This document shows positions 1 through 50,089 of a stretch of 50,089 bases of DNA, piece after piece (position 1 is the first letter of the stretch; every line of letters starts with the position of its first letter). The position numbers and the translations under genes are program-made. The DNA lies in NCBI GenBank assembly GCA_050239825.1, contig JBFXGO010000012.1:1-50089 (forward strand), written 5' to 3'. Origin of the DNA: a bacterium. GTDB taxonomy: Bacteria; Hydrothermota; 32-111. The notes under the pieces are model-generated. The model did not search any database, was not told the DNA's origin, and saw only the letters and a program-made list of their open reading frames with translations.

Positions 1-416
1 CCATTCAGTTTTCAGACAGCTTAAAGAATCCGACGATAGATATTGGAGATACAATCTATGTTGACACAATGGCTATATGGGGCACGAGAGTCAAGAAACC
101 GTTTAAGAATCCGGTCGTATTAACGGGCAGTTTTGGGCCGACAGGGATACAAGAAAACCGTGAGCCATGTGCCTTGAGCTTGGGGACATGTACTTGTACT
201 GTCCCCACAATCAAGAGCCAATACATAATATGGAATACAAATGAAGAAGCGACATTAACAGTTTACGATATATCAGGAAGAGAATTAATTAAAGAGGAAT
301 CAAAGACAATAGGTGAACACAAAACAGACATCAGAGCATTAAAGAACGGGATATACTTTGTGAAACTGAGAGATGAGAATAAATCAATTACAGAGAAGAT
401 GGTAAAGATAAGATAG
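1..416 (+). CDS. 5'-truncated secreted protein with T9SS-type C-terminal sorting domain; paralog of 1027..2886
   Basis: Frame is open from base 3 (IQFSDSLKNP...). C-terminus VYDISGRE...LKNGIYFVKL...EKMVKIR is a typical type A CTD. Confidence 0.85.
   Translation, partial: IQFSDSLKNPTIDIGDTIYVDTMAIWGTRVKKPFKNPVVLTGSFGPTGIQENREPCALSLGTCTCTVPTIKSQYIIWNTNEEATLTVYDISGRELIKEESKTIGEHKTDIRALKNGIYFVKLRDENKSITEKMVKIR
1..416 (+). repeat. Direct repeat of 2471..2886 (offset 2470)
   Basis: 1-240 vs 2471-2710 differ at 2 positions; 241-416 vs 2711-2886 differ at about 37 of 176 (manual count). Confidence 0.97.
158..208 (+). repeat. In-frame heptamer repeats (CCnTGWG x3) plus TGGGGACA-N11-TGTCCCCA hairpin; second copy at 2628..2678
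   Basis: ccgtgag ccatgtg ccttgag ct tggggaca tgtacttgtac tgtccccac; the same motifs occur intergenically at 7037-7065 and 7174-7205. Confidence 0.85.
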
Positions 417-444
417 CTAATCTAAAAAAAGCATAACTAATGAA

Positions 445-472
445 TTGACACTGGGGAAAAAAGATGTAAAAT
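445..472 (+). promoter_or_regulatory. sigma70-type promoter
   Basis: TTGACA-16 nt-TAAAAT, then an AAGGAG Shine-Dalgarno before ATG 497. Confidence 0.6.
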
Positions 473-496
473 TTAAAAAAACAGAAGGAGAATGGA

Positions 497-970
497 ATGA
501 ACGATTTGAATAGACAAACATTGAATTTGCATACCACAACTGAGATAACATTGCCAAAGGAGACATATCAGGATTATAGCGTAGTGGTCAGTATTGACAG
601 GAAGAGGGGCAATCCCAACAGAGTGATTGAGATGGGTGTCTATGAATTTGATGAGGTTGGAGATGTTGCTGAAACCGCATCCAAAGCTTCAATAGTTCTG
701 CTGACGGAGAAACCGAAATCAATAGAGCAGATGAAAATAACGAGTTCAACAAGCGGAGAGGTCAAGATAGTTCTTGGAAATGAGAGCATGAAGATTAAGA
801 ATGTAAAAATCATTGATGTTCTTGGCAGAGAGATAGGGTATTATTCATCAAACGAGCTTAAAGGAAAGAAGGAGATAAAAATAGACAGCAGATTAAAGAA
901 CGGCATCTATTTTGTGAGAATTGAGACATCGGATGGAATCATTACAGAGAAGGTTAACATAATCAAATAG
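497..970 (+). CDS. Small protein with T9SS-type CTD and no signal peptide
   Basis: IIDVLGRE...LKNGIYFVRIET...TEKVNIIK CTD; hydrophilic N-terminus; own promoter and SD. Confidence 0.75.
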   Translation: MNDLNRQTLNLHTTTEITLPKETYQDYSVVVSIDRKRGNPNRVIEMGVYEFDEVGDVAETASKASIVLLTEKPKSIEQMKITSSTSGEVKIVLGNESMKIKNVKIIDVLGREIGYYSSNELKGKKEIKIDSRLKNGIYFVRIETSDGIITEKVNIIK

Positions 971-983
971 CAAAAAAAGGAGA

Positions 984-1018
984 ATAGGGTGGAATTGTAA
1001 AAATCAGTTCCACCCTAT
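984..1018. repeat. REP-like palindrome
   Basis: atagggtggaattg-taaaaat-cagttccaccctat: 14-bp stem with one G-U pair. Confidence 0.85.
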
Positions 1019-1026
1019 ATATTTGT

Positions 1027-2886
1027 ATGAAAACCAAATTAATCATTTTCCTATTACTAATAAATTCAATGATTTTTGCTGATTATGAATTAAAACAATT
1101 ACATGATTTTTATGACATTGGAAATAATGGAAGGTTAGATATCCTTTTAGATGTTGGAAAGTATTATCCGTATGTGTCAATTCTTACTAATAGAACAAAT
1201 AATCCTTATTTTGAAATAATCCTTGAATATAAAAACAATATGTATAACATCAAAGATTCAATAGATTCTGCGGGCTATACAATTGGACATATTGATATAG
1301 ACAACAATTTGAAAAATGAAATAATAAGTATTCTTAATACTGGTGATTATTTAGGAGAAGATAGATTTTTTACACTTTCGGAGCAAAGCGATACCATTTC
1401 TTTGGACTTTACACCCAATTATATATCTATGGATTTTTTAGAAGGTTTAATTTGGCTATATCCTACCGGTCTCATAAAGAATAAGCCGACGATAGTGGGA
1501 GCGCCACCGATGGACTCAGATACAGGGTGGTTCTATATGGAATATGATTCAACCGGAGACAGTTTAAAGTTCGGACAGGTGTATAATGCATACTATGATG
1601 GAGAGTATAGGAGTATGGTAAGCTCAATGTGTATATGCAGATTTGATGATGACAGTTTGACAGATGTGATAATGGGAACAAGCAGGGGTCAGGAGTGGTG
1701 GGAAGCGACCGATGCGGAGAATGACTCATTTGCGCAAATAGACAGCTTTGAATGCCCGAGGGTTGGCACGACAGCGACATTCTTTGCGGGTGATTTGGAC
1801 AGAGACGGGAGGAATGAGTTCATAATATACGGAGGGGTGGCATTGATGCTTCCCTGCGAATGGGCAATGGGGATATTGGAATATAACGGAACGGACACGG
1901 TGCAGTTGATATACGAGGACACATTGAAGAAGGATTACGGAGCATACCCGAATGTATTGAAAGGGTCAGACGCAGACACAGGAGATATAGACGGAGACGG
2001 GTATAATGAACTTATATATGCGGCAGGATGTTTTTTGAAGGTGTACAAGACATTTGGGGACAATGATTTTAGGGTAATGTGGGAGATAGACAATGACACA
2101 TTTTCAGGGAGCAATGTAAGCGTATATGATTTCAACGGGAATGGCAGAGCAGAGATAATCTGGTCAGGGGCGAGCTATGAGGATTTGCCGTTGACTTATG
2201 GAATGGATGTGCAGAAGACATACATATTTGAGTATGACAGCAATTATAGTTATAATGTGATAGATTCAGCGAGGGGATTGGCTGGTAGGTTTCCTGAGGC
2301 TGGAGTTACAAGAGATGATTATGTGCAGATATTTTTCAATTGGGATACGGATATGCCGGAGATAAACAGTGGGAACATAGACAGTATATTGAGATTGAGT
2401 AACGGCCACACATGGCTTGATGGGAATGGGGATATAACACAGGCAGTATGGATAGGAGGCAAAAAGCTCACCATTCAGTTTTCAGACAGCTTAAAGAATC
2501 CGACGATAGATATTGGAGATACAATCTATGTTGACACAATGGCTATATGGGGCACGAGAGTCAAGAAACCGTTTAAGAATCCGGTCGTATTAACGGGGAG
2601 TTTTGGGCCGACAGGGATACAAGAAAACCGTGAGCCGTGTGCCTTGAGCTTGGGGACATGTACTTGTACTGTCCCCACAATCAAGAGCCAATACATAATA
2701 TGGAATACAACAATGACAAGCACACTAATAGTTTACGATATATCGGGAAGGGAGTTAATCAGAGAGGAATCAAAGACAAACGGAGAACACAAAACAGACA
2801 TCAGAGCATTAAAGAATGGGATATACTTTATAAAACTCAGTACCGAAAATCAATCAATCATAGAAAAAATGGTTAGGATAAAATAG
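1027..2886 (+). CDS. Secreted FG-GAP/VCBS-like repeat protein with T9SS-type CTD
   Basis: Signal peptide MKTKLIIFLLLINSMIFA; GDLDRDGRNE, GDIDGDGYNE and DFNGNGRAE motifs; C-terminal CTD. Confidence 0.85.
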   Translation: MKTKLIIFLLLINSMIFADYELKQLHDFYDIGNNGRLDILLDVGKYYPYVSILTNRTNNPYFEIILEYKNNMYNIKDSIDSAGYTIGHIDIDNNLKNEIISILNTGDYLGEDRFFTLSEQSDTISLDFTPNYISMDFLEGLIWLYPTGLIKNKPTIVGAPPMDSDTGWFYMEYDSTGDSLKFGQVYNAYYDGEYRSMVSSMCICRFDDDSLTDVIMGTSRGQEWWEATDAENDSFAQIDSFECPRVGTTATFFAGDLDRDGRNEFIIYGGVALMLPCEWAMGILEYNGTDTVQLIYEDTLKKDYGAYPNVLKGSDADTGDIDGDGYNELIYAAGCFLKVYKTFGDNDFRVMWEIDNDTFSGSNVSVYDFNGNGRAEIIWSGASYEDLPLTYGMDVQKTYIFEYDSNYSYNVIDSARGLAGRFPEAGVTRDDYVQIFFNWDTDMPEINSGNIDSILRLSNGHTWLDGNGDITQAVWIGGKKLTIQFSDSLKNPTIDIGDTIYVDTMAIWGTRVKKPFKNPVVLTGSFGPTGIQENREPCALSLGTCTCTVPTIKSQYIIWNTTMTSTLIVYDISGRELIREESKTNGEHKTDIRALKNGIYFIKLSTENQSIIEKMVRIK

Positions 2887-2887
2887 C

Positions 2888-2919
2888 GAGCTGGTGAGCT
2901 AGTGCGCTGGTATGCTGGT
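2888..2919 (+). repeat. Degenerate octamer tandem repeat (gagctggt gagctagt gcgctggt atgctggt)
   Basis: 8-nt periodicity directly after the stop codon; reverse complement matches octamers at 47673-47884. Confidence 0.8.
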
Positions 2920-3037
2920 GCCTCTTAGTCCTGCGAGTGCTAATGCCTGTTTGACGGCTGACGCAATCCTCCTCTTGACTTATTTATATTTTAAGTTTAA
3001 TATCTTTTTTTTACTAAAAATTATAAAAGGAGTTTGT

Positions 3038-4588
3038 ATGACTCTTGAAGAAAAATTATTGCATCTCAAGAAAAAAAGGGAGACAGCTGAAAAGGGCGGC
3101 GGAGATGAGCGCATAAAAAAACAGCATGAGAAGGGAAAGCTCACAGCCCGCGAAAGAATTCATCTGCTTCTCGATGAGGATTCTTTTGAGGAATTTGACG
3201 CATTTGTCGAGCATAGATGCACGAATTTCGGGATTGAAAAGACAAAGTTTCCTTCAGACGGAGTTGTCACCGGATATGGAACAATAGAGGGAAGGCCGGC
3301 ATTTGTCTTTTCGCAGGATTTCACGATTTTCGGAGGTTCATTGTCTGAAACATACGCGGAGAAGATATGCAAGATAATGGATATGGCCGCTAAGAACGGA
3401 GTTCCGGTAATCGGACTCAATGATTCAGGAGGAGCGAGAATACAGGAGGGGATAGAATCCCTCGCAGGGTACGCCGACATATTCCTCAGAAATGTAATGT
3501 ACTCGGGAGTGGTTCCTCAGATATCTGCAATAATGGGTCCCTGTGCCGGCGGAGCAGTTTATTCTCCTGCTATAACAGATTTCATATTCATGGTCAAAAA
3601 GACCTCTTACATGTTTTTGACCGGTCCGAAAGTTGTGAAGACAGTAACTCATGAAGATGTTACTGATGAGGAGCTCGGAGGAGCGTCGATTCATTCAATA
3701 AAATCGGGTGTAGCATCCTTTGTCAATGATTCTGATGAAGAGACAATAAAACAGATAAGAAGATTGTTCTCATTCATACCTCTAAACAACAGAGAAAATC
3801 CTCCTGTAGTTGAGAATGCTGACCCTATAAACAGAATGGAGATAGGATTAAACACAATAGTTCCTGATGATCCGAATAAACCGTATGATGTGAAAGAGGT
3901 TATAAACATTCTTGTAGATAACGGCGACTTTATGGAGATTCAGCCGAACTTTGCCTCGAACATAGTTATAGGATTCGGACGATTCAACGGAAGGTCTGTG
4001 GGAATAGTGGCAAATCAGCCGAAATCCCTTGCAGGAGTTTTGGATATAAATGCTTCAGAGAAGGGGGCGAGATTTGTCAGGTTCTGCGATTCATTCAATA
4101 TACCGATAGTCACTCTTGAGGATGTGCCGGGATTTTTGCCCGGAACACAGCAGGAGTATGGCGGAATAATTAAGAGCGGAGCGAAACTTCTATACGCTTA
4201 TGCAGAAGCCACAGTTCCAAAAATTACAATAGTGATGAGAAAAGCATACGGCGGAGCATACTGCGTTATGTCATCAAAACATATTCGCGGCGATATTAAT
4301 TATGCCTGGCCTACTGCTGAAATAGCGGTTATGGGTCCGAAGGGAGCTGTTGAAGTAATATTCGCCCGCGATATAATGAAATCGGAAAATCCGGAAGAAG
4401 CAGAGAGAAAATTTGAAAACGAGTACAGGGAAAAGTTTGCCAATCCGTATTCAGCCGCAGTCAGAGGCTATATAGAGGATGTAATAGAGCCGAAGACGAC
4501 AAGATTCAGAATAATCAGGGCTCTTGAACTCTGCAAGAACAAGATGGATTCAAATCCGGCAAGAAAACACGGAAACATCCCATTGTGA
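3038..4588 (+). CDS. mmdA: Acyl-CoA carboxyltransferase / methylmalonyl-CoA decarboxylase alpha subunit
   Basis: [29 protein letters not shown] and C-terminal KHGNIPL; SD AAGGAG before ATG 3038; operon with biotin carrier and beta subunit. Confidence 0.9.
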
Positions 4589-4595
4589 GGCGCAG

Positions 4596-5078
4596 ATGAA
4601 GAGAATGACTTTAATATTATTGATTCTCATCTTTGTTCCAATGCTCTTTGGGCAGGAGAAGGCAGATTCAATGGCGGCGGACTCTATCTCGACTGATTCT
4701 TCAATGATACAGCAAGATTCCTCTTCAACTGTGAATTCATCATTGGTGGTTGATGCAAAGGAGACAAAGAATGTGAGCCCGCTGACTTTGACCCTATTGG
4801 GAATGCTTACTGTATTTTCCGGACTTTTGATAATGCAGTTATTTATAAATACCCTTAAGCTGATTTTGAACCCGCCTCCGAAAAAAATTGCAGTTACAAA
4901 GGAGGAGGAGGTAAACAAGGGTCTTCTAAGCAATGTGGATTTGACTGAAGATGAGATGGTAGCAACAATAACTGCGGTTATGATGGAGTCAAAACTTCAC
5001 CATTCGATTTCAAATGACAAATTAACAATAAAATGGCAGGATAAGAATCCTCACTGGATTTCAACAAGGAGAAACTAA
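4596..5078 (+). CDS. mmdD: OadG/MmdD-family decarboxylase subunit with extra signal peptide and Ser/Asp-rich linker
   Basis: GMLTVFSGLLIM transmembrane helix, EMVATITAVM, C-terminal W motif; position in operon. Confidence 0.75.
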   Translation: MKRMTLILLILIFVPMLFGQEKADSMAADSISTDSSMIQQDSSSTVNSSLVVDAKETKNVSPLTLTLLGMLTVFSGLLIMQLFINTLKLILNPPPKKIAVTKEEEVNKGLLSNVDLTEDEMVATITAVMMESKLHHSISNDKLTIKWQDKNPHWISTRRN

Positions 5079-5497
5079 TGGGAGAGTATATATTCACTAT
5101 CAATGGCAAAGACTATAAAGTCAATGTCAACACCATAGACCAGAGTGCGGCGAATGTTGAAATAAACGGAAAGACATTTGTCGTCAATATGAAACAGGTG
5201 GGAGCTACATCGGAAAAAAAGGATTCAAAAAAGATCCAGCAGGCGCCTGTTCAGGAATCCAAAAGAGTTGAGAGCGGAACAATCAAAAAAATATTGGCTC
5301 CTCTTCCCGGAGTTGTGCTCAATGTCATAGTCAGGGAAGGTCAGGAAATTAAAGAGGGGCAGGATGTAATGGTTATGGAAGCTATGAAAATGGAGAATTC
5401 GATTCACTCTCCTTTTACCGGTAAGGTTATCAGGATAAATGTAAAAAGGGATGATACTGTAGCTGAAGGAGATGTTCTTATAGAGATCGGAGCCTGA
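5078..5497 (+). CDS. mmdC: Biotin carboxyl carrier subunit
   Basis: EAMKMEN biotinylation motif; APLPG. Confidence 0.92.
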   Translation: MGEYIFTINGKDYKVNVNTIDQSAANVEINGKTFVVNMKQVGATSEKKDSKKIQQAPVQESKRVESGTIKKILAPLPGVVLNVIVREGQEIKEGQDVMVMEAMKMENSIHSPFTGKVIRINVKRDDTVAEGDVLIEIGA

Positions 5498-5499
5498 AA

Positions 5500-6633
5500 A
5501 TGATTGAATTAATGAAGACATTTTATACATATACGGGCTTTGCCAATTTCGATTACAGATATCTTATAATGATAGCTGTATCAATGTTCTTTATATACCT
5601 TGCAGTCGCAAAAGAGTATGAACCGATGCTTCTTCTTCCAATAGGATTTGGAATACTTATCGGCAACATACCAATGCTCATTGGTCTGAAGGTCGGAATC
5701 TACGAACCCGGGTCGGTTTTAAACTATCTTTACTTTGGAGTGATAAACGGGCTCTATCCGCCTCTTATCTTCATGGGTATAGGAGCTATGACGGATTTTT
5801 CGACAATCTTATCAAATCCAAAGACAATTCTTCTGGGAGCCGCCGCGCAACTCGGAATATTCACAACATTCATTGCGGCATACTACCTTGGTTTCACTCC
5901 TGCTGAAGCCGGTTCGATAGGAATAATCGGAGGAGCGGACGGACCCACTGCAATATTTCTAACATCAAAACTGGCTCCTCACCTTATTGGTCCCATTGCG
6001 ATTGCGGCATACTCATACATGGCTCTTGTTCCTGTAATTCAGCCGCCTATTATGAATCTTCTTACTACTAAGAAGGAGAGGCTTATAAGGATGAAGAAAC
6101 CGAGAACAGTAAAAAAAATTGAGAAGATTTTGTTTCCGATTTTTGCTTTTACTGTTTCCGCATTCATAACACCTGCCGCAATTCCTCTTCTTGGAATGCT
6201 TTTCATGGGCAATATTCTAAGAGAGAGCGGAGTGACCAATCGTCTTGCCAAGACAGCCTCTAATGCTCTCATTGATATTTGCACCATCATGATAGGGCTT
6301 ACAGTCGGAGCATCAACTCAGGCAAATGTCTTTTTGACATGGTCATCTATAAAAATATTCATACTCGGTTGCGCCGCTTTTGCATTTTCCACTTTCGGAG
6401 GAATTCTGTTTGCAAAACTCATGAATCTCTTCCTCAAAACCGAAGACAAGATAAATCCTCTTATTGGTTCTGCAGGTGTCTCTGCAGTTCCTGATGCGGC
6501 GAGAGTGTCTGAGATGGTGGGAAGACAGAATGACCCCAACAACCACTTGTTGATGCATGCAATGGGTCCTAATGTTGCGGGAGTGATAGGTTCCGCGATT
6601 GCCGCCGGGATACTTCTCTCATTCTTCGGATAA
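5500..6633 (+). CDS. mmdB: Na+-translocating decarboxylase beta subunit (OadB/MmdB family)
   Basis: EPMLLLPIGFG, IGIIGGADGPTAIF, HAMGPNVAGVIGSA; multiple transmembrane helices. Confidence 0.95.
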   Translation: MIELMKTFYTYTGFANFDYRYLIMIAVSMFFIYLAVAKEYEPMLLLPIGFGILIGNIPMLIGLKVGIYEPGSVLNYLYFGVINGLYPPLIFMGIGAMTDFSTILSNPKTILLGAAAQLGIFTTFIAAYYLGFTPAEAGSIGIIGGADGPTAIFLTSKLAPHLIGPIAIAAYSYMALVPVIQPPIMNLLTTKKERLIRMKKPRTVKKIEKILFPIFAFTVSAFITPAAIPLLGMLFMGNILRESGVTNRLAKTASNALIDICTIMIGLTVGASTQANVFLTWSSIKIFILGCAAFAFSTFGGILFAKLMNLFLKTEDKINPLIGSAGVSAVPDAARVSEMVGRQNDPNNHLLMHAMGPNVAGVIGSAIAAGILLSFFG

Positions 6634-6721: not shown

Positions 6722-7334
6722 AAAAGGTAAAAAGATAAGAAGGTAAAACAATGGGGAGATTCCTTGTAAAGACAAAATCTTACTCAACCGTGTCACCCTG
6801 AACGCCTCTATGGTTATGACTATCGTGAAGGGTCTATCATTTTATTGTTAATTAATTATTGAAAATTGTTTGGGGGGCTGCACGTGGGTGTAGCGTCGGC
6901 TCACACACTCCGCTTCGCCGCTTTATCAAGATGGGTTAGCGTAGCAAGGGGTCGCCCACTTGATGGGCGTCTTCGCGGAGCGTCCTCGCCGACTTGTAGC
7001 TTTCACTTTCAATAAGTTATTTAATTGATTGTTGCAGTGGGGACACACCGAAGGAATGTCCCCACATTGGCGAGGGTGTAATGTGCGCGAACGCACATGA
7101 TAGAGGTATCGGGTTGCACCAGAACTTTGTGAAGATTACTGTAAAGAATAAATATTACTCAGCTCCGCGTATTAAGCTCATGGCACACGGCACATGGCTC
7201 AAGGCTGATTTAGTGGCTGCACTGGAATTTTTCCTCGGAACTGTAAAGGCAAAATCTTACTCAACTCACTGTATTGAATTTAAACTCTTATCCAGCACTC
7301 TTTTACCTTTTACCTTTTAACTTTGTAACTTTAC
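6722..7334. repeat. Composite non-coding repeat cassette (inverted AAAAGGTA-type arrays at both ends, three 24-bp direct repeats, four hairpins, heptamer array)
   Basis: Arrays at 6722-6745 and 7301-7334 in opposite orientation; TGTAAAGnnnAAATnTTACTCAnC at 6765, 7140 and 7242; hairpins at 6792-6836, 6856-7015, 7037-7065 and 7081-7098; heptamers at 7174-7205. Confidence 0.8.
6856..7015 (+). ncRNA. Candidate rod-like structured RNA or MITE-like element, family unknown
   Basis: Nested stems ttattgaaa/tttcaataa, gctgca/tgtagc, gtcggc/gccgac, ctccgc/gcggag, tatcaag-a-tggg/ccca-cttgatg; GC-rich core within AT-rich flanks. Confidence 0.45.
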
Positions 7335-32151: not shown

Positions 32152-32636
32152 TAAAGAAAATCCTAAACTATATTTCAATATCAGTTTATGAAACTCTGAA
32201 ATTTTTCGGAGTATTCAAATATATAAATATGATGATTGACTTTTCTAAGGTTGATAAGAAGAAGCTTCTTTTGGAGTATATCAAACAGCATAAACTCCTT
32301 GTGCTGATTTTTTTGTCTTCAATATTGTTCATATATCTTTCATTCAGATTCGGAATAAACAAGCCTATTACCGCTCTTATAGTGATTATGTTCGGAGTCT
32401 TCTCACAATTGTTTGCGGAGATGCTTGCTCTGGTCTCACTCATACCCATCGTCGGTCCTATAATAGTCAAGGTGATATCGATACCTATAATAATATTGAT
32501 GAACGGAATAGGATACATTGTCACATTCTTCGCATTCAAGAAAGGCTACAAAATGGAGGTTGCGAGGTCAAAACTCTTTACAACGGCATTGCTCATCGGA
32601 GTAATGCTGGGATACCTTTTAGGAAAGATACTATGA
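32148..32636 (+). CDS. Hypothetical membrane protein
   Basis: Several hydrophobic helices; TTGA-coupled start. Confidence 0.7.
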   Translation: MIKKILNYISISVYETLKFFGVFKYINMMIDFSKVDKKKLLLEYIKQHKLLVLIFLSSILFIYLSFRFGINKPITALIVIMFGVFSQLFAEMLALVSLIPIVGPIIVKVISIPIIILMNGIGYIVTFFAFKKGYKMEVARSKLFTTALLIGVMLGYLLGKIL

Positions 32637-35452
32637 AAAAATTGATTTTTGCAGTTCTTCTCTGTGTATTCATTTCTGCATATTCACAAACAACTTACTT
32701 TGGAAAAAACAAGGTGCAGTATACTAGTTTCGGTTGGAGAGTTGAGAAGACGGATAAGTTTGATATTTACTATTATCCCGGAGGAGAGGAGGTCGCCTCT
32801 TTCGTCTCTCTTGTCGCCGAATCTTCAATGGCGGAGCTGGAAACCGCATTCAATTACAAGTTAAAGAGACGAGTGCCGATAATATTGTACAATTCCCACA
32901 AGGACTTTGAAGAGACGAATGTCACCACAGAAATATTGGAGGAACTAATCGGCGGATTCACGGAATCACTGAAAAACAGAGTGGTTATTCCATTTACCGG
33001 TTCCTATGAAGACCTCAGGCATGTAGTAAATCACGAACTTGTCCATGCAATGCAGTTTGAATATTTGTATGGAAAGGGAGGCACCGGCGCTATTGTGAGC
33101 TCCATAACATACGATGTCCCTCTTTGGTTTATTGAAGGAAGCGCTGAATACTTTTCAAGAGTCTGGGACAAAGAGACTGATATGTATATGAGAGATGCCG
33201 TGGTCAATGACACTCTCATTGACCTTGTAACTCTCGGTTATTACTCCGGCGGATTTTTTCTCTACAAAGCAGGCGAGTCGGTTCTGAAATTTATTGCCGA
33301 TAAATACGGCAGAGAGAAGATAGGCGAAATTTACTTTTCATTGAAAACGACAAGATCCCTGGATGAAACATTTGAAAAACTTCTGGGGAAGAAGACTGAG
33401 GAGCTTGATAATGAATGGAAGCTTTATCTCAAAAAGAGATACTTTCCGCTCATCAAGAACAAGGATGTGCTTGTCGAAAACTCAAAATCCCTTCTCGGAA
33501 GCTTTATGGAGACATCTCCATACAATATCTCTCCCTCTGTTTCTCCGGACGGGAATTATTATGCCTTTATATCCGAAAAGTACGGATACTTTGACATATA
33601 TGTCTCTTCAATATTCAATCCGGATAGAAAGGAGAAGGTTCTCCCGCGCACATTTGTGAGGCATTTTGAGAGCTTTCATCTGGACTATGGAAATCTCAAT
33701 TGGTCAAGAGATAGCAGATGCCTTGTGTTTTCTGCAAGAAACAATGAGGCGGAAAAGATAATTGTTTATGATGTGAGAAAAAAGAAGACAGTCAAAAGCG
33801 TAAGCATTAAGGCTGACGGAGTCTTTTCTCCGGCTGTTGATTCAAAAACAGAAAAGGTTGTTTATGTCAAAATGAACAACGGAAGAAATGACATCGCGGT
33901 GTATGATTTTGCACAGAAGAAAGAAATTCTTCTTACCAATGATATATTTGACGACAGGAGTCCGTTCTTTTTAAATGATTCTACAATAATATTCTCAAGC
34001 GATATGGGAGAGGAGAGTCTCTGGATATACGGATCATACTCTATCTATCTGATGAATATAAACTCGAGGGAAAAGACAAAGATTGAATTGGATGTCAATG
34101 CGAGCATCGACCGATTCTCTCTTGTCAATGATTCTATGGTTGTATTTGCATCTTACATCGGCGACATTTCAAATGTCTTCCAGCTCAACATCGAGACCGG
34201 CAGAGTTCAACAGCTGACGGATGTCATAACCGGCTGCTTCAATCCTTCAATGTCTTCAGACATGTCAAAGCTGGTATTTTCATTTTTCTCTCAGATGCAG
34301 ATGGATGTAATGATTCTGAACAACCCATCCGACAACAGACAGGAGATTGACCTGACTTATGAGTATGATGATTACATAAGGAAATATAATCAGTATGATT
34401 TTAAACCCGTCAATCCCCAAAAGCCGCCATTTAACTTTTCCGTTGACTGGGCGGCCGGTGCTTTCTCCTATACTCCCGGTTACGGTTTTGTCGGACTTCT
34501 TGATGTCGGAGTAAGCGATATGATGGGTGATAACTGGTTTTTCCTTCAGATGGAAAAACTTTCGTTTTCGGGAAGCGGATACATATCCTGCGAGTATTGG
34601 TTCCTGAAAAACAGAATGGACATTGCGCTTCTGTTTCTAAATCAGGAACAGGAGCAGTTTCTCACATATTATTATTCCCTCTCTTATATCTATAACGGCG
34701 GAGGTATTCTTCTGCGCTGGCCATTTGACAGGTACAAGAGAATCGACCTGCAGACTTCGCTGTACAAGTATGATGTGAATGAAAACATCTATTATACGGA
34801 CGGCACTGTGACCGACAATCTCTACACATCGGTAAGAAGTTCTCATGTTCTCTCATTCGTCTATGACAACAGCATATGGGGATACTTCGGACCTGTCAAC
34901 GGAGATGTCGCAAGGGTGGATTTAGGCTATGAAATTGACTATGACCCTAAGGACTCACTCGGAAATTTCAGAGGAGGGTACCTGTCAGCTGATGTGCGCA
35001 AGTATTTCATAATCACTCCCAGAAGTCAATTTGCAATCAGAGCTTCCGGAACAACTTCTTTCGGCAGGGAGAGGATGTACTCTTTCATAGGCGGTTCATC
35101 CTCACTCAGAGGTTATAATGATTACGAATTCTACGGTATAAACACTGCATTTGTAAATATGGAGCTTAGGTTTCCCCTGATAGATAAAATTCAATTCCCC
35201 ATTTATGATTTTTCGTTCATGAATATCAGGGGGGTTGTTTTTTCAGATCTCGGCATTGCCAAAGATGATATATCGGATTTAAGGCTCATAACATCGGATC
35301 TCCTTCTCGATGACCTAAAGTGCGGCATTGGAGCAGGATTAAGAATGGATATATGGATAACATTATTAAAGATGGACATTGCAAAACACACGGACATGAT
35401 GGTGCTTTCGCCCGAAACATACTATCACATCTCATTCGGCGCGGAATTCTGA
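32633..35452 (+). CDS. Zincin (peptidase MA-like)-TolB/PD40 propeller-Omp85 barrel fusion protein
   Basis: FGKNKVQY, HELVH...PLWFIEG, SPDG repeats, LRGY motif, C-terminal GAEF. Confidence 0.82.
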   Translation: MKKLIFAVLLCVFISAYSQTTYFGKNKVQYTSFGWRVEKTDKFDIYYYPGGEEVASFVSLVAESSMAELETAFNYKLKRRVPIILYNSHKDFEETNVTTEILEELIGGFTESLKNRVVIPFTGSYEDLRHVVNHELVHAMQFEYLYGKGGTGAIVSSITYDVPLWFIEGSAEYFSRVWDKETDMYMRDAVVNDTLIDLVTLGYYSGGFFLYKAGESVLKFIADKYGREKIGEIYFSLKTTRSLDETFEKLLGKKTEELDNEWKLYLKKRYFPLIKNKDVLVENSKSLLGSFMETSPYNISPSVSPDGNYYAFISEKYGYFDIYVSSIFNPDRKEKVLPRTFVRHFESFHLDYGNLNWSRDSRCLVFSARNNEAEKIIVYDVRKKKTVKSVSIKADGVFSPAVDSKTEKVVYVKMNNGRNDIAVYDFAQKKEILLTNDIFDDRSPFFLNDSTIIFSSDMGEESLWIYGSYSIYLMNINSREKTKIELDVNASIDRFSLVNDSMVVFASYIGDISNVFQLNIETGRVQQLTDVITGCFNPSMSSDMSKLVFSFFSQMQMDVMILNNPSDNRQEIDLTYEYDDYIRKYNQYDFKPVNPQKPPFNFSVDWAAGAFSYTPGYGFVGLLDVGVSDMMGDNWFFLQMEKLSFSGSGYISCEYWFLKNRMDIALLFLNQEQEQFLTYYYSLSYIYNGGGILLRWPFDRYKRIDLQTSLYKYDVNENIYYTDGTVTDNLYTSVRSSHVLSFVYDNSIWGYFGPVNGDVARVDLGYEIDYDPKDSLGNFRGGYLSADVRKYFIITPRSQFAIRASGTTSFGRERMYSFIGGSSSLRGYNDYEFYGINTAFVNMELRFPLIDKIQFPIYDFSFMNIRGVVFSDLGIAKDDISDLRLITSDLLLDDLKCGIGAGLRMDIWITLLKMDIAKHTDMMVLSPETYYHISFGAEF

Positions 35453-38400
35453 TTTTACTTGCAGTCAATCTGTGCGCTTTTGAATTTTCGACGGAACCTG
35501 TTCTTAGAGAGAAGGACGGATTTCTCTCTTTTGTGACCGACCTTGAAAGGTCCGATGCTTTGGCAGGCAGTCCGGATATTCCTGTAATCAGGATTATCAA
35601 TGCCGATATCAGTAGTGTTAAAGTTTCTCTTATCAGTGAAGAGACTCTCAAGCTCGACAAGAAATTATATCCAAGGCAATTACCTGTAAGGAAAGAAAAC
35701 GCAGATTTTACAATATCTTTCGACAGAGCATCATACAGTTCAAACTCAATGATTTATAAGGATGTTTTCAAAATCAAGAATAACAACACTGTGGAAATTT
35801 ATCCTTATGATTATATCCCTACGGCAGACCTCCTTATAATACGCAAAATAGAATATTCATACTCTTTGGCAATGAAAAAATCATCAGGCAATAAAACAGT
35901 AGCTATCTATGATGATATTTTTTCTCTCTATACTGATTCTTTAAGAGATTATTATCTTCAAAGAGGATTTTTGTTTGAATCATTTCCTCTTTCAATTTGC
36001 GGTTCAACTAATACCGAAATAGACAATTTCATAGAAAATGAATATGCAGGGGAGAGTTTTTCGCATCTTCTGCTTATAGGCAATTCATCGGCTCTGCCCT
36101 ATTTTACAGGTTCGGGCATTGATTATCCGGCGACAGACCTATACTACTCTCTTATGGACACTAATGATTATTTCCCTGATGTGATTCTTTCGCGCCTTCC
36201 GTTCAATCAGCCGTCGGAGCTCTCCGATTATCTTTTTAAGGTTAAAACAGAGTATGCCGGGGGAAAGCCTGATTACGCAGATAAGGTGTATTTCATTGCT
36301 TCAAATGACGGTTATTATCACACACTTGTAGAATCCACACATGCGTATTCAATGGGCAGGTTGAGAGGTCTTGGATATGAGTGCGATTCTCTCTTCGGCT
36401 ACTACTCAACCGGAATGCCTATCGATAAGGCGGTTGAAGAGGGGAGGGAGATTGCCGTATACTCAGGCCACGGAGCGGCCTTTTACTGGGTAGGCCCCTC
36501 CTTTGACTCTGATGATATTGAGAGTCTTGATAATTATGCCCTCTATCCTTCAATAGTCTCATTTGCCTGTCTCACGGGCAACTATTCCTATAATGATTTC
36601 TTCGGCTACTTCTGGCTGAAAAACAGTCTAAACGGCGCAACCTCTTTTATAGGCTCCTCCCAGTACACATATTGGGAAGAGGATGACTTTTTACAGAGGG
36701 CGTTTATTGACTCTCTTTCAGCATCTTCATCTATCATAGAAGCAATGAATAAAGCAAAAATAAATTTTTATAAAGAGTATGGTGATGTTTCAATGACCAG
36801 AGGATATTTTGAAAGATACAACTATTTTTCACTTCCTGAAATTTATGCCGGAAGCAAAAATATTTCATCGTATGTTTTTGCCTGCGACAAGTATCAACCT
36901 TCATCTTCGGGGATGATTGAAGCCAGTGCATCATTTAACGGGGAACTTGATGAGAGCGGATTTACAGGAGTATTCTTTGAAGGTGTATTGGGAGATTCTG
37001 TCTATTTCAACAATTCAGCAAATGTGCAGTTTGACATAGCCCCTCTGTCGGCTGTCGTTGGTGATTCTCTCCTAATCACAGATTATGTCCCCGGTCTCTT
37101 TTTTGGTCAAAGGTATGTCAAACTCATTAAAGACGGATATTTTGTGTCTCTCTCTTCATACGAACTTTCAAACTTTTCTATTGACACTTTTCATTTTGAT
37201 TTGAATTTTAAAAATTACGGTAATTCATCGTCTGACAGCTCCCATGTTATTGTCGGCGGTCTTGACGATAGTCTTTTTAATATAATCTCATCTGAAATAA
37301 GAATCGGTCCGCTGATGAGCGATTCAAGCATAACAGTGACTGATGGTCTTGTTATCGAAATTAACGGCTACTCTGATTCCGCACTCTCTCCAGTATGTTC
37401 CCTCTTTACTGTCACAGGCGGCGACACTGTGTGCGAAATAATCGAGCTGGATCTTCTAAAACCTGACTTTGAAGTTGCTTTTAATTCTGCTGTCATTGGC
37501 GAGGATACTACGAATAGCGTTGTCTTGGGGGCATATTCAAGAATTCTTCTCAGCATAACCAATCTGTCATCTTTAAAATCTAAGGACATTAAGATAAAGT
37601 TAACCTCTCCGAACATTGTGTGCGCTGACAGCATAAAAACAATAGATTCACTCTCATTCAATGAATCGATAGAGGTTTTTTATGACATATTTGCGTTTTC
37701 TTCTTCACAGCCGGTCTGCTCTCTTACAGCAGTTCTCTCCCTCGGAGGATATTCTGACACGACTCTGATTATAGTGCCGACGTCATTTAAAAATTCATCA
37801 ATGTATCTCGGTCCTATAAACGGATATTACATTTACACAAACGAAATGACTGATTTTGAAAACAGCCCTCTCTTTGAAGAGATAGATATTGATTCCCATG
37901 CTTTCAGACAACTGGAAGTAAAAGACGATACTACAATCTGCGTCAAGCTTCCTTTTGAAGTGCATTTTGCCGGTGAAAGCAGAGACTCAATATTTTTTAA
38001 CACAAACGGAATACTCTCTCTGTTTGACATTCAAAATGATGTTTATATGAGCGAACCTCTGCCGACATCGTATCTCTCTAATCCTTCGATTTTTACAGGT
38101 TGGCTTGATTACAGATGCGAATATTATGATGATGTGTTTGTGAAACCATCTGATGCAGTAAATACCGTATTTTCTTATTTTGACACTACCAACTACAGAT
38201 ATGTGATTTACTATAACAAAGTAAAGGCTGGAGAGAGTAACTATACATTTGCAGTCTCCCTTGACACTGCGGAAGTGACACTCTACTATATTGACATTCC
38301 CGATAGCAACAGCATGATAATAGGGATGCAGTTCGACTCGCAGAATTACCTTTCATTCTCTTATGACACTTCAGAAACAACCATTAAGTCAGTGCGAAAT

Positions 38401-38724
38401 AATCTTGCAGTAAAATTCTCTCCGTTTGCTCCGATTTTGAAGAATAAATTCACTCAAATGTATGAAATGAAATTTACTCTTCCGCATCTTGATTCTCCTG
38501 CTCTGATTGAAAGGAAATCGAATTTAAGAATAACATTCAACGAATCATCTTACTATGAGGTTTATTTGTATGATATCTCGGGAAGGCTGAATGAGATGCT
38601 TTACAGCGGACTTACACCAAAGTCCACTCTTTCATTCCATCCGAATATGACCGGCGGTGTCTTTTTCCTTGTAATAAAAAACAATGACCGGGTAGTTCTC
38701 ACAAAAAAATTGACGGTATTTTAA
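35320..38724 (+). CDS. C25 gingipain-like cysteine peptidase with CTD (true start uncertain, probably near 35434-35449)
   Basis: TDLYYS, SRLP, YSGHG (His), FACLTG (Cys); C-terminal LYDISGR...GVFFLVI. Confidence 0.82.
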   Translation: MRHWSRIKNGYMDNIIKDGHCKTHGHDGAFARNILSHLIRRGILILLAVNLCAFEFSTEPVLREKDGFLSFVTDLERSDALAGSPDIPVIRIINADISSVKVSLISEETLKLDKKLYPRQLPVRKENADFTISFDRASYSSNSMIYKDVFKIKNNNTVEIYPYDYIPTADLLIIRKIEYSYSLAMKKSSGNKTVAIYDDIFSLYTDSLRDYYLQRGFLFESFPLSICGSTNTEIDNFIENEYAGESFSHLLLIGNSSALPYFTGSGIDYPATDLYYSLMDTNDYFPDVILSRLPFNQPSELSDYLFKVKTEYAGGKPDYADKVYFIASNDGYYHTLVESTHAYSMGRLRGLGYECDSLFGYYSTGMPIDKAVEEGREIAVYSGHGAAFYWVGPSFDSDDIESLDNYALYPSIVSFACLTGNYSYNDFFGYFWLKNSLNGATSFIGSSQYTYWEEDDFLQRAFIDSLSASSSIIEAMNKAKINFYKEYGDVSMTRGYFERYNYFSLPEIYAGSKNISSYVFACDKYQPSSSGMIEASASFNGELDESGFTGVFFEGVLGDSVYFNNSANVQFDIAPLSAVVGDSLLITDYVPGLFFGQRYVKLIKDGYFVSLSSYELSNFSIDTFHFDLNFKNYGNSSSDSSHVIVGGLDDSLFNIISSEIRIGPLMSDSSITVTDGLVIEINGYSDSALSPVCSLFTVTGGDTVCEIIELDLLKPDFEVAFNSAVIGEDTTNSVVLGAYSRILLSITNLSSLKSKDIKIKLTSPNIVCADSIKTIDSLSFNESIEVFYDIFAFSSSQPVCSLTAVLSLGGYSDTTLIIVPTSFKNSSMYLGPINGYYIYTNEMTDFENSPLFEEIDIDSHAFRQLEVKDDTTICVKLPFEVHFAGESRDSIFFNTNGILSLFDIQNDVYMSEPLPTSYLSNPSIFTGWLDYRCEYYDDVFVKPSDAVNTVFSYFDTTNYRYVIYYNKVKAGESNYTFAVSLDTAEVTLYYIDIPDSNSMIIGMQFDSQNYLSFSYDTSETTIKSVRNNLAVKFSPFAPILKNKFTQMYEMKFTLPHLDSPALIERKSNLRITFNESSYYEVYLYDISGRLNEMLYSGLTPKSTLSFHPNMTGGVFFLVIKNNDRVVLTKKLTVF

Positions 38725-46941: not shown

Positions 46942-47047
46942 AGACATTCCAGCGTGTTAGTAATCCGTAATATTTGATTGATTTTACTACCTGAACAGGT
47001 ATAATGAAGAAATCAGATAAGAGGAACTGTATCCGTTCTGAGATGTG

Positions 47048-47075
47048 TTGACACAATAAAAATGGTAGTTATAAT
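47048..47075 (+). promoter_or_regulatory. sigma70 promoter of hicAB
   Basis: TTGACA-16 nt-TATAAT, 8 nt before the ATG. Confidence 0.7.
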
Positions 47076-47083
47076 ATATTAAA

Positions 47084-47278: not shown

Positions 47279-47279
47279 A

Positions 47280-47492
47280 ATGCACCGATTTTTAATAGTT
47301 ATAGAAAAAGCAAATGGGAATTATTCCGCATATTCTCCAGATCTGCCGGGATGCATAGCTACCGGCACAACAAGAAAAAAAGCAGAGAAGAATATGCATG
47401 AGGCGATTGAAATGCATTTGCAGGGCATAAGAGAAGATGGTCTGTCAATTCCGCAGTCAACCGCCATAGCCGAATATGTTGCAGTAAAATAG
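47280..47492 (+). CDS. hicB: HicB antitoxin, short form
   Basis: YSAYSPDLPGCIATG...EAIEMHL. Confidence 0.92.
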   Translation: MHRFLIVIEKANGNYSAYSPDLPGCIATGTTRKKAEKNMHEAIEMHLQGIREDGLSIPQSTAIAEYVAVK

Positions 47493-47543
47493 AATATTTG
47501 TGGCTCATTTCTAAATTGTGAAGGATCTATAAATAGAATAATT

Positions 47544-47571
47544 GTAGGGGAGGGTTTTAAACCCTCCTTTT
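47544..47571 (+). terminator. GTAG-led REP-like hairpin / terminator
   Basis: gtagg-ggagggtt-tta-aaccctcc-tttt. Confidence 0.7.
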
Positions 47572-47594
47572 ATGTTTTTTATCAATTATCATTC

Positions 47595-47623
47595 TTGACA
47601 ACAATACAAATTGAATATAAAAT
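47595..47623 (+). promoter_or_regulatory. sigma70 promoter
   Basis: TTGACA-17 nt-TAAAAT, then GGAGGT SD at 47638-47643. Confidence 0.75.
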
Positions 47624-47650
47624 CAGATAAACAATTTGGAGGTAAAGGGA

Positions 47651-50089
47651 ATGAAGAACATATTTAAATTTCACAAGCATACCAGCATACCAACCCACCT
47701 GCGTACTAATATTTCAGTCATTCTGAAGTCCGCAGTAGTTACCTCTATCCTGAAGAATCTATCAAAGCGTACCAGCCAACCAGCTAACAAGCATACGAAT
47801 TTTGTCATTCTGAAGTCCGCAGTAGTTACCTCTATCCTGAAGAATCTATCAAAGCGTACCAGCCAACCAGCATACCAGCGAACGATCTTACTTCTCTCCT
47901 TGCTGTTCGGATTCGTGCTGTTGAATGCGCAGATGGTAGGGGAGCTTGGCAGATGGGAATACGGACCGACAGAGGCGATAGCAATAAAGGGAAATACAGC
48001 ATATATAAGTAGTGGAAGCTACTTATGGGTAATGGATATAAGCAATGAAAGCAACCCGAGATTAATAAGTGAAATGAAACTTGAGAACTATATACATTAC
48101 ATCAGAAGGATAGGGAATTACTTGTATGTGAGCAAGAATGATACATTGCTGAATATCTATGATATACATACAGATACAATACCAGTTTTGGTGAACCAGA
48201 TAGAAGGAGAGGATTCGGATTTTCCATGGAAAGAGATAATTTATACCGGAAATACTCTATATATTAGTGGATATTTCAATCGACAGTATTTTATAAACGA
48301 TACAATAAGTCCTACATTTACAAGGATAGTCGGTTTTACAAGAGATATAAATAATGATTCAACTGTATTAGTAGGAACAATGCAAGAAGATAGGGAGATA
48401 AGGGTATATGATCTAACCCAAATTGGTGATATATACGATCAAACAGATGATTACTACACAACAGAGAAGATAAGAGGAATAAGAGTAACCTACCCCTATG
48501 TTTACTTTGGCTATGGGAGCCAGGGGGTAGGAATAATGGATATAAGCAACTTGTATGATATAAAACTAAAGAAGACAGTGGCGACAGGCGGCAATACATA
48601 CGATGTGGAGATGATAGAGGAAACATTGCTTATAGCGGCGAGGGGATTAAATGGAATAGGGATATATGATGTAGAGGATGATACGCTATTAACGGAGATA
48701 GGAGCCTGCGAGACAAACGGCTATACATACGAATTGGAGGTAATAGGGAATAGATTGTATGCAGGAGCGAGAAGCGGCGGCTTAATCATAGTGGATATAA
48801 CAGATAAGAGCAACCCCACGGTGGTTGGTGAGTATAGAGGGTATGGAGAATGCAGGAGGATGACAATAGAGGGAGACAGGATGTATGTAGCGAGCGGGGA
48901 CGGTGGAGTAATGATAATGGATATAACTGACAGGGAGAATCCTGAAGTAATAAGCCAGTGCTGGACAAGGAATATAGGGGAAGATGTGGTAAAAGGCGGA
49001 GATTATCTTTATGTAGCAGACGGAGACAGCGGGTTAACAGTGGTAGATATCAGTGATGAAGATAATCCGAGTGTAGTGGCAGGAATTCCGACAGGATGTT
49101 ACGGAAGCTTTGCCGGTATATATGATAATGTGTGCATGATAGGCGGAAGAAGATTTTACTTATCTGGTGATACAGCGAAAGACGGAATAGGATTAATTGA
49201 TATAAGCACACCATCAAATCCTATTAAAGAAAACGAAGTAATGGATGGACATTCATATATATCTTTTCAATTGGATGACACAATAATGTATTGTGTGGGT
49301 GATGCAGGGGCATATGCGAGATATGAGATATGGAATATAAAAAATAGTGCGGTTCCAGTGTTAGAAGACAGCATAATGATATATTTAGGTAGTTATACGT
49401 CAGTAGCAGGAAAAGACACTATATCGGTGACAAATTATTTAGATACTTTGCTGTTTTATAATGTAAAAGACCTAAACAATGCCACTTTAATAAAGAGAAT
49501 ACAAAGTCCTGGCGGACAAACTGAAATGTTGATAGATAATGATGTATTATATACTCTCAATGGACAACCTTGGATGGTGATGTATGATATAAGCAATTTA
49601 CCAACAGTAGATACAATAGCAATAGAAACATTAAGAGTGGAAGCTTATGATATAAACAAACAGAATGAATATATATATACCACCCACAACCAATATGGTT
49701 TAAGCATATACGGGTTCGATATGACCCCGCCGAGTAAAATAACACTGATAGAGCCACAGGATGGAGACACAGCATATAATAACAGCATGGAAGTAACATG
49801 GCATAAATCAACAGACACAGGAGTGGGAATAGACAGGTATGAGGTGTATGTGAATGGGATAGAAGAGGGAGAGACAACAGATACGAGTATTACAGTAAAT
49901 ACAACATCAACAGGGACACGGAATGTGTGGGTAAAGGTGTATGACAGAGTGGGTAACAGCAGTTACTCAGATACGAATGCAGTGTATTTGCTTACAGGGA
50001 TAGAGGATGGAAGTAAAACAAAGGGAATAGAAAAGGAGCTGACGATAAAGACAACACTAAATAGGATAAGCGTATATAATGGAACAACA
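47651..50089 (+). CDS. 3'-truncated secreted LVIVD-repeat protein with Ig/FN3-like domain and probable CTD (absent from ORF track)
   Basis: Hand translation from ATG 47651 finds no stop before the window end; YLYVADGDSGLTVVDISDEDNP-type repeats; DMTPP...VKVYDRVGN; TGIED linker. Confidence 0.9.
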   Translation, partial: MKNIFKFHKHTSIPTHLRTNISVILKSAVVTSILKNLSKRTSQPANKHTNFVILKSAVVTSILKNLSKRTSQPAYQRTILLLSLLFGFVLLNAQMVGELGRWEYGPTEAIAIKGNTAYISSGSYLWVMDISNESNPRLISEMKLENYIHYIRRIGNYLYVSKNDTLLNIYDIHTDTIPVLVNQIEGEDSDFPWKEIIYTGNTLYISGYFNRQYFINDTISPTFTRIVGFTRDINNDSTVLVGTMQEDREIRVYDLTQIGDIYDQTDDYYTTEKIRGIRVTYPYVYFGYGSQGVGIMDISNLYDIKLKKTVATGGNTYDVEMIEETLLIAARGLNGIGIYDVEDDTLLTEIGACETNGYTYELEVIGNRLYAGARSGGLIIVDITDKSNPTVVGEYRGYGECRRMTIEGDRMYVASGDGGVMIMDITDRENPEVISQCWTRNIGEDVVKGGDYLYVADGDSGLTVVDISDEDNPSVVAGIPTGCYGSFAGIYDNVCMIGGRRFYLSGDTAKDGIGLIDISTPSNPIKENEVMDGHSYISFQLDDTIMYCVGDAGAYARYEIWNIKNSAVPVLEDSIMIYLGSYTSVAGKDTISVTNYLDTLLFYNVKDLNNATLIKRIQSPGGQTEMLIDNDVLYTLNGQPWMVMYDISNLPTVDTIAIETLRVEAYDINKQNEYIYTTHNQYGLSIYGFDMTPPSKITLIEPQDGDTAYNNSMEVTWHKSTDTGVGIDRYEVYVNGIEEGETTDTSITVNTTSTGTRNVWVKVYDRVGNSSYSDTNAVYLLTGIEDGSKTKGIEKELTIKTTLNRISVYNGTT
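47717..47871 (+). repeat. In-frame tandem duplication (68 identical bp, period 87 bp) of a REP-like hairpin plus octamers
   Basis: 47717-47784 is identical to 47804-47871. Confidence 0.95.

Follow-up and report, generated by a model that had tools for sequence, protein, structure and literature searches.

The 50,089-nt stretch of DNA analysed here (the window) is contig C25 of a 2.1-Mb Hydrothermota genome (G000; 67 contigs, 40% G+C), and it carries genes for cargo proteins of the type IX secretion system (T9SS) in which short repeat modules, also dispersed between the genes, are read in frame. P0001 (3..416, plus strand) is a cargo gene truncated by the contig start; its remaining 3' part comprises the passenger end, a linker made of modules and a T9SS C-terminal domain (CTD), recognized as Por_Secre_tail (PF18962) at residues 76-134 (E 1.9e-10, 41.3 bits). 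P0002 (1027..2886, plus strand) is an FG-GAP cargo gene with a signal peptide and a T9SS CTD (PF18962, 34.3 bits); both proteins pass the curated cut-off at the C-terminus. P0003 (47651..50089, plus strand) encodes an LVIVD beta-propeller cargo protein, starts at an ATG 8 nt behind GGAGG and is open at the contig end; its own CTD would lie beyond that end, and the paralogue at C49:4296 has Por_Secre_tail. The whole genome gave 67 Por_Secre_tail matches, 54 of them above the cut-off alone or with neighbours in frame.

A first-pass annotation of the window had described four motif families present both between genes and in frame within cargo genes. Their coordinates hold, and all four exceed the expectation from shuffled sequence. 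The M1 hairpin, TGGGGACA-N11-TGTCCCCA, was found at all three of its proposed sites (181, 2651 and 7038) and in none of 100 shuffles. M2, three consecutive CCNTGNG heptamers, gave four overlapping matches at three places (158, 2628 and, on the minus strand, 7177-7204), and M3, a 45-nt hairpin, three matches (6792, 47717 and 47804), again with none in the shuffles. The M4 octamers, ACCAGCNN, were matched nine times, at 2890-2919 (minus strand) and 47673-47879, against 0.08 expected. Counts over the 2.1 Mb were 57 sites for M1, 78 for M2 and 30 for M4, and M3 is present in 76 copies, 50 of them distinct. Rfam at the gathering threshold and ARAGORN found no match in the window. The likeness between translated and intergenic copies, as first described, is nevertheless partial. 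Both kinds of M1 share the 8-bp arms and the 11-nt loop length, but the loop sequence differs: all six M1 sites within open reading frames (ORFs) of the genome have a coding loop type unlike that of the intergenic copies, and these six lie 209 nt (one of them 182 nt) 5' of the stop of a Por_Secre_tail ORF. M3 is likewise shared by gene and gap, but the coding copies (stem TT/AA) belong to another subfamily than the copy at 6792 (stem CC/GG).

The motifs are parts of one kit of dispersed, non-autonomous and genus-specific repeat modules. Roughly 400 module copies were counted in the genome, loose patterns included. They fall into about eight short types: three hairpins (M1, M3 and H3), two tandem heptamers (M2 and S), the M4 octamers and two boxes (A and K). 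Units of ~290 and ~375 bp are built from them, and arrays of such units, up to 2.3 kb long, occupy gene-free DNA. The proposal of a non-autonomous dispersed family was supported. Repeated 14-mers span 84,683 bases of the genome and form 108 repeat regions of at least 150 nt, which are mostly gene-free, the longest ones being multicopy genes; numerous contigs terminate inside repeat arrays. Few modules in variable order and orientation, in many copies and in gene-free DNA, constitute a mosaic like that of bacterial or neisserial interspersed mosaic elements (BIMEs, NIMEs). A complete ~375-bp unit occupies 6762..7139 (plus strand) and consists of an A box, M3, an AT spacer, a GC-rich segment of ~125 nt, M1 and a further hairpin; it aligns with a six-copy tandem array at C50:130.5-132.7 kb. 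Its M3 (6792..6836, plus strand) is of the main intergenic subfamily with the CC/GG stem, and its M1 (7038..7065, plus strand) is of the intergenic type, with loop CACCGAAGGAA. The adjoining segment (7140..7265, minus strand) is part of a ~290-bp unit, with four M2 heptamers (7177-7204) and two A boxes. An M4 octamer array (2888..2919, minus strand) begins 2 nt 3' of the stop codon of P0002; an ORF call at 2912-4588 overlaps it, but the real start of that gene is the ATG at 3038 behind AGGAG, and the array is therefore intergenic. Strong matches to the intergenic block of the window were confined to the same genus (75 in G000, 17 in G001 and 20 in G002); only 10 of 41 relatives matched at all, those outside the genus in short pieces. 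No known relatives of M1, M2, M4, S, A or K were named by any search result in this analysis.

Two further features of the kit were observed. In the GC-rich core of ~125 nt (window 6876-7000) paired segments vary between copies at both partners, as in the variants GGGGTCGCCC and GGAGACAACC of the 375-bp unit, and Rfam (gathering threshold) reports no family for it. The K box (ending in GTCAAGCACCGTCCCCA or AACCACCGTCCC) lies just 3' of M3 hairpins and directly 5' of, or overlapping, called gene starts (G000:C63:17699, C18:7619, C54:4197 and C9:56433), and a similar word stands upstream of an LVIVD orthologue in another genus (L021, G004). On the opposite strand the K box reads as two TTGACA words and may be promoter-related.

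One position where modules are translated is the linker that precedes the CTD. In P0001 three M2 heptamers (158..178, plus strand) are read as REPCALS and are followed by an M1-type hairpin (181..208, plus strand) with 8-bp arms and an 11-nt coding-type loop, read as LGTCTCTVPT. In P0002 the same combination, three heptamers and an M1-type hairpin (2628..2678, plus strand), encodes residues 535-551 at the passenger/CTD junction. Both proteins read NREPCALSLGTCTCTVPT, encoded by these heptamers and the hairpin, immediately 5' of the Pfam CTD, and the module-encoded pre-CTD linker stretch is EPCALSLGTCTCTVPT. The two in-frame sites are present as proposed but do not represent separate events: bases 1-240 and 2471-2710 of the window are 99% identical over 240 nt, and therefore one gene tail has been duplicated.

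Within the genome, tblastn retrieved nine tails with the module linker, three of them orphan or broken, and four tails with a plain linker, ESREIKDVAELQSIRVTGCKTIE, that are otherwise very similar. At the DNA level the two linker alleles split right after a common first heptamer, CCGTGAG, and rejoin at TGGAATAC; the M2 heptamers are thus truly in frame, but the first of them occurs also in paralogues without modules and is not specific to the insert. Both alleles were also found in the two other species of the genus (G001 and G002); heptamers of the module allele there number one to about five, and the M1-type hairpin may be present or absent. In another genus (g4; G005 and G008) the same pre-CTD position is filled by heptamers of the CCATTGA and CAACTAT types, which also occur untranslated, upstream of a G008 gene. 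The pre-CTD linker is predicted to be disordered: in an AlphaFold2 model of the tail, based on a 17-row alignment, residues 45-62, most of the module-encoded part, have pLDDT below 50, and the CTD sandwich reaches 85-92. The three orphan or broken copies of module linker and CTD (G000:C7:49541-49819, C50:140594-140864 and C23:10502-10720) share upstream sequence, joined ~25 nt before the heptamers, and look like one truncated tail moved with another multicopy element near IS3-like remnants.

The other position lies at the N-terminus. In P0003 an insert of 73 codons (47666..47884, plus strand; M4-M3-M4-M3-M4) separates the first residues, MKNIF, from the hydrophobic core of the signal peptide, LLLSLLFGFVLLNAQ, and an 87-nt (29-codon) unit of M3 and M4 is tandemly duplicated at 47717..47890 (plus strand). 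The paralogue at C63:18846, 95-96% identical, has a single 87-nt unit, and C49:4296 and the pseudogene C49:187 have a long block, M4-M3-K-H3-M2-S-M2. In the four LVIVD paralogues MKNIF is followed by 48-107 residues encoded by modules, and their lengths from ATG to cleavage site (192, 282 in P0003, 372 and 375 nt) are all multiples of 3. Orthologues with and without the inserts were compared, as the first-pass annotation had proposed. All eight LVIVD orthologue loci examined, from three other genera (G003, G004, G007 and G008), are free of modules; behind GGAGG they begin with MKK or MKR followed directly by the h-region, and their MKKIF or MKKTF matches MKNIF. The modules therefore sit inside the n-region. 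An unrelated, lipoprotein-like gene, C49:7776, reads MSLKLFS-AQGARLTAQG-h-region-lipobox, in which AQGARLTAQG derives from four reverse M2 heptamers, and these are absent from all five of its orthologues with a visible start. No homologues of the LVIVD genes or of C49:7776 were found in the two same-genus genomes with the queries used.

The leader cassette occurs in seven copies in the genome. Besides the LVIVD genes, two copies are joined to a short lipobox ORF (C66 and C18, one of them frameshifted) and one is an orphan ORF of 166 codons; G002 has a cassette that shares the promoter, the Shine-Dalgarno sequence and the first codons. The orphan leader (C63:17142-17642) also includes an in-frame tandem duplication of 96 nt. 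Another arrangement was seen in LVIVD orthologues of a different genus (L017, L022 and L025; G007), where a conserved hairpin, GGACAGG-6 nt-CCTGTCC, stands between a sigma-70-like promoter and the Shine-Dalgarno sequence, hence in the 5' untranslated region (UTR) and not in the ORF. A cargo gene with 13 LVIVD repeats and a CTD exists in about five near-identical copies of 2.5-2.8 kb (C9, C53, C17, C55 and C33), and in the C9 copy examined (L001:1099-3276 and 3546-3965) an integrase-core (rve) fragment follows the gene.

Bona fide translated copies were found confined to these sorting-signal regions of exported proteins and to one C-terminal tail. The latter belongs to a TonB gene (C6:15416-16165), in which 47 residues past the TonB_C domain are read from A and M3. 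The claim that in-frame copies lie only at tolerant junctions, namely between Met and signal peptide and between passenger and CTD, was thus right about these two positions, with the C-terminal tail to be added. Among the ORFs of the genome, no folded domain was found to contain a bona fide copy of a module. A hit in a phosphoglycerate kinase gene on C4 was rejected as a chance k-mer, and from 32 genes flagged by loose patterns only the cargo families, C49:7776, the C6 TonB tail and a GIY-YIG start overlap were accepted. The loose A-box and S-module patterns match many genes by chance, and a map of intergenic 12-mers in ORFs, mostly AT-rich chance words, served only to pick candidates.

The idea that the modules target surface-protein genes was not supported. 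Depending on the distance allowed (150-600 nt), 6-10 of 59 CTD genes and 71-155 of 1627 other genes have modules nearby, an enrichment of only about 2-fold (odds ratio 1.9-2.5, p 0.05-0.07); downstream flanks alone reached p values of 0.006-0.04, uncorrected and from non-independent paralogues. The copies within ORFs reduce to about five independent events, and the apparent enrichment is therefore largely a matter of paralogy and survivorship. Almost all translated copies are in exported proteins. Their sites are either removed with the signal peptide or disordered as in the linker, so that purifying selection alone would explain the positions of the survivors. The intergenic copies themselves are mostly open when read as protein: 100% and 97% for M3 in sense, 100% for M2 in antisense and 76-100% for M1.

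The hairpins M3 and H3 resemble a known class of repeats. M3 has the frame GTCA, stem, interior, stem, TCT, with a stem of 5 bp, a tandem G.A and 3 bp around an interior of 19 nt, and H3 has the form CGTCATTGCGAG...GCAATCTC. In M3 the pairs (4,40), (5,39) and (11,33) covary, the tandem G.A is invariant, and none of 500 shuffles reached the observed pairing. Excerpts of Di Nocera et al. (2013; PMC3733652) define tagged repetitive extragenic palindromes (REPs) by CGTC, or TGTC or CCTC, ahead of a stem whose first base, A, is paired with T, and both M3 and H3 show these features: the window reads GTGTCA at 6790-6795, H3 copies read CGTCATTGCG, and pair (3,41) is A-T in 44 of the 50 distinct M3. 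A continuous stem of 8-9 bp with a loop of 4-5 nt was not found in M3. According to the same excerpts, CGTC-tagged REPs include the dRS3 repeats of Neisseria as well as the Rickettsia palindromic elements RPE-4 and RPE-6, which are CGTC-4 and CGTC-1 REPs. Excerpts of a 2025 paper in Nat Commun (PMC11893778) describe the NTS and Ssn-related motifs (SRMs) as single-stranded DNA (ssDNA) targets of the single-domain GIY-YIG nuclease SsnA, whose gene is typically flanked by its own hairpins. M3 and H3 resemble hairpins of this CGTC-REP, NTS and Ssn-related kind.

A gene of the corresponding type is present. Only two GIY-YIG matches were found in the genome, one in a 534-codon frame and the other in a small gene, P0004 (L002:6083-6391, corresponding to G000:C27:46082-46390, minus strand), which encodes 102 aa with GIY-YIG as its only domain (57 bits). 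P0004 is located between two inverted M3-like hairpins (L002:6038-6081 and 6371-6415) at the edge of a 5-kb repeat array. A search for recombinase or nuclease genes flanked by the motifs, as had been suggested, was thus positive for GIY-YIG and negative for the four Y1_Tnp (RAYT-like) genes of the genome, none of which is flanked by modules. Homologues of P0004 occur in 12 of 41 relatives, and 11 of the 18 loci have GTCA-stem-TC hairpins no further than 200 nt away. Hairpin density within 200 nt of the homologue is 3.19/kb, against 0.13/kb in the rest of the loci (24-fold) and 0.10/kb genome-wide. The gene is thus flanked on both sides by the hairpin, and the association is kept in relatives. 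P0004 matched no NCBIfam family, and its best PDB match was UPF0213 BH0048 (E 1e-3). Its membership in the Ssn family (cd10448) and cutting of ssDNA next to the hairpin are putative, by analogy with SsnA. The longest ORF of P0004 starts inside a hairpin (MSIVKDLS), ahead of the likely true start, MYYVYILTN. The gene is adjoined by tandem repeats of 70 and 132 nt (94-99% matches; L002:6426-6810) that reach the end of G000:C27.

The RPEs of Rickettsia and other intragenic REPs are dispersed palindromes found in frame inside intact genes, to which they add 15-30 residues, and protein termini are thought to tolerate them. The first-pass annotation had invoked this precedent, and aptly, since M3 and H3 resemble the CGTC-REP class that contains RPE-4 and RPE-6. 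Judged from the sequences, the inserts described here are in-frame repeat insertions of the RPE type, because they keep the frame of intact ORFs and have module-free counterparts (8 of 8 LVIVD orthologues, 5 of 5 for C49:7776, and nine module against four plain linkers). As with RPEs, a repeat lies in frame in intact genes whose relatives lack it, and M3 and H3 share the (C/T)GTC tag and the A-first stem. Unlike RPEs, unrelated modules, tandem heptamers and octamers among them, are here joined into blocks of up to ~100 residues, and, unlike CGTC-REPs, M3 has a stem broken by a tandem G.A and a 19-nt interior instead of a 4-5-nt loop.

Other mosaic repeats offer further parallels. Short tandemly repeated repetitive (STRR) heptamers of heterocystous cyanobacteria form dispersed tandem heptanucleotide arrays in non-coding DNA, but here the heptamers are degenerate at two positions, belong to larger mosaic units and are in part translated. 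With the NTS/Ssn system the modules have in common an oriented GTCA...TC hairpin, many copies, mosaic clusters and a flanked GIY-YIG gene; the excerpts of PMC11893778 differ in describing repeats around genes and no translated copies. Like BIMEs and REP mosaics, and like RU and ERIC, the kit consists of few modules in variable order between genes. Excerpts of Delihas (2007; PMC2759123) report that RU and ERIC, small mobile sequences of enterobacteria, are found intragenically, some with open frames fused to genes, including genes with signal-peptide motifs. Unlike in BIMEs and REP mosaics, there is no link to RAYT here, the four Y1_Tnp genes being unflanked, the module sequences differ, and the kit belongs to a single genus. 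A literature search for such repeats in WOR-3 returned nothing relevant by title, and one on palindromic elements in frame and signal peptides yielded the general precedents named above. In-frame insertion of the REP/RPE type and mosaic repeats with an Ssn-like partner are already known; what stands out here is that tandem heptamers and octamers serve as modules and that the boundaries of sorting signals are used repeatedly.

The observations are probably best explained by tolerated insertion of modules into cleaved or floppy sorting-signal regions, followed by spread through recombination among paralogues. The gene-free gaps are filled by a genus-specific mosaic repeat system of about eight short modules; a block of these would occasionally land in, or recombine into, a coding region, perhaps by microhomology or repeat-mediated recombination. 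Stop codons are scarce in the modules, so that about every third or fourth insertion would remain an open frame. Survivors would be those that kept the frame and affected only a dispensable part of the protein, namely the n-region of a Sec signal peptide, which is removed after export, the floppy linker before the CTD, or a C-terminal tail. Surviving blocks would then spread and vary among paralogues via duplication and gene conversion.

Several points weigh against this explanation. Among paralogues with CTDs that are 85-88% and passenger ends that are ~69% identical, the module linker block agrees at 97-99%; this exceeds what simple neutral decay predicts and suggests recent conversion or a constraint acting on the DNA itself. 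Neutrality of the inserts, as well as translation and cleavage of the leaders, is something we infer from sequence, and the direction, repeat into gene and not gene into repeat, is suggested by copy numbers only. The orphan leader at C63:17142-17642 keeps a 166-codon frame open through ~500 nt of modules with no gene body, and since the leader at C18:11729 is frameshifted and C49:187 is a pseudogene, some copies may be decaying rather than tolerated. In contigs of other strains, by our own reading, the 30 letters 5' of position 47912 contain an in-frame TAA. Moreover, the published SRM search pattern (excerpts of PMC11893778) gave four hits in the genome against two in each of three shuffles, and none of the hits was M3 or H3. 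The sequencing runs speak neither for nor against heterogeneity or expression. One of them contains 68% of the sampled words and none of the others more than 17%; all consist of contigs that break at the repeats and in which alleles and paralogues are inseparable, and the joints listed for them include none that drops an 87-nt unit.

In place of passive tolerance, the modules might be functional recombination junctions at which promoters, leaders and CTD/linker cassettes are exchanged among surface-protein paralogues, with the putative Ssn-like GIY-YIG enzyme perhaps nicking ssDNA during transformation or replication; they would then form a surface-variation device like the dRS3/NTS-flanked genes of Neisseria. 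We regard this as rather unlikely, though mosaic patterns speak for it. P0003 of C25 shares its upstream region with C49:4296 (94% over 87 nt; leader 74%, body 81%), and its leader and body with C63:18846 (91% and 95%; upstream 80% over only 50 aligned nt), so that the LVIVD breakpoint falls at the start codon or M4, with promoter type and leader/body type reassorted. At the linker, by our own reading, all four combinations of 5'-flank variant and linker type occur, the switch lying directly after the first heptamer CCGTGAG, and the linker alleles are largely more alike among paralogues (module 97-99%, plain 92-99%) than the CTDs (80-92%). In C66 and C18 the leader cassette (Shine-Dalgarno, ATG, MKNIF and modules) precedes another kind of signal, one with a lipobox, and the cassette also occurs in G002; NTS, according to excerpts of PMC11893778, clusters around variable and virulence genes and affects the integration of transforming DNA. 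Such comparisons show active exchange in the linker and leader regions, and reassortment at the first heptamer or the ATG fits recombination at or near the modules, which gives their causal role some support and does not imply it. Any conserved stretch, such as ATG-proximal codons or a conserved CTD, would yield the same mosaics by ordinary gene conversion, and the enrichment of modules beside CTD genes is only about 2-fold. A stronger form, to which we give little credence, holds that the n-region and the pre-CTD linker are dedicated landing pads for programmed, repeat-guided cassette exchange, where Ssn-type hairpins and degenerate arrays would be kept because nicking and repeat homology let promoters, leaders and tails swap; it would account for the stronger conservation of the linker blocks, as DNA, in comparison with the surrounding domains.

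Two other accounts concern the translated copies themselves. The modules could act in cis on expression, either through M3, whose hairpin with its tandem G.A lies in the first 100-250 nt of the mRNA and might modulate translation or stability, or through the arrays, as slippage contingency tracts that switch cargo or CTD out of frame. Pairing in M3 is kept by covariation, the leader subfamily included; with units of 7 and 8 nt, a change by a single unit alters the reading frame; paralogues and species differ in their number of heptamers, and one leader copy is frameshifted. However, the units are degenerate (CCNTGNG and the M4 octamer), which disfavours slippage, the C18 frameshift is by our own reading due to a 1-nt indel that lies outside the arrays, the fold of the leader-type M3 is weak (-3.2 kcal/mol as RNA, -0.3 as DNA), and Rfam finds nothing in the window; a role in cis is very improbable. 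Least probable of all is that the in-frame copies escape translation, the leaders being open 5' UTRs with true starts elsewhere, or parts of pseudogenes. Open frames arise easily in stop-poor modules, as in the orphan 166-codon ORF that runs through modules alone, several family members are broken, and excerpts of Di Nocera et al. (PMC3733652) warn that N-terminal intragenic REPs are often misannotation. Here the only Shine-Dalgarno sequence with an ATG lies 5' of the modules, and MKNIF matches the MKKIF/MKKTF of the orthologues. Between the modules and the hydrophobic core there is, by our own reading, no ATG or Shine-Dalgarno sequence, and the few GTG and TTG codons are part of the core; if translation began further downstream, an otherwise intact cargo protein of 800-900 residues would therefore lose its signal peptide. 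The pre-CTD copies stand midway in intact ORFs of 620 residues, and the CTD can be made only if they are translated.

Other genes of the window were noted in passing. Those for a carboxyltransferase, a biotin carrier and OAD_beta (3038-6633) resemble an operon for a Na+-pumping decarboxylase, in which the M4 array made the 5' gene call too long. Three very large predicted peptidases are encoded at 28364-38724: an M6-like one with FG-GAP and a CTD, an MA-type one with PD40, and a C25 gingipain-like one.

The orthologue controls indicate that intergenic repeats, tandem heptamers included, can become protein sequence at sorting-signal boundaries, and the pre-CTD linker has been hit independently in different genera. 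The association of hairpin and nuclease of the Ssn/NTS type is extended to this lineage. Annotators of these genomes should expect cysteine-rich linkers, as well as long N-terminal extensions of odd sequence, to be repeat-derived. If cassettes were indeed exchanged at the modules, surface variation in an uncultured phylum would have a mechanism that can be tested.

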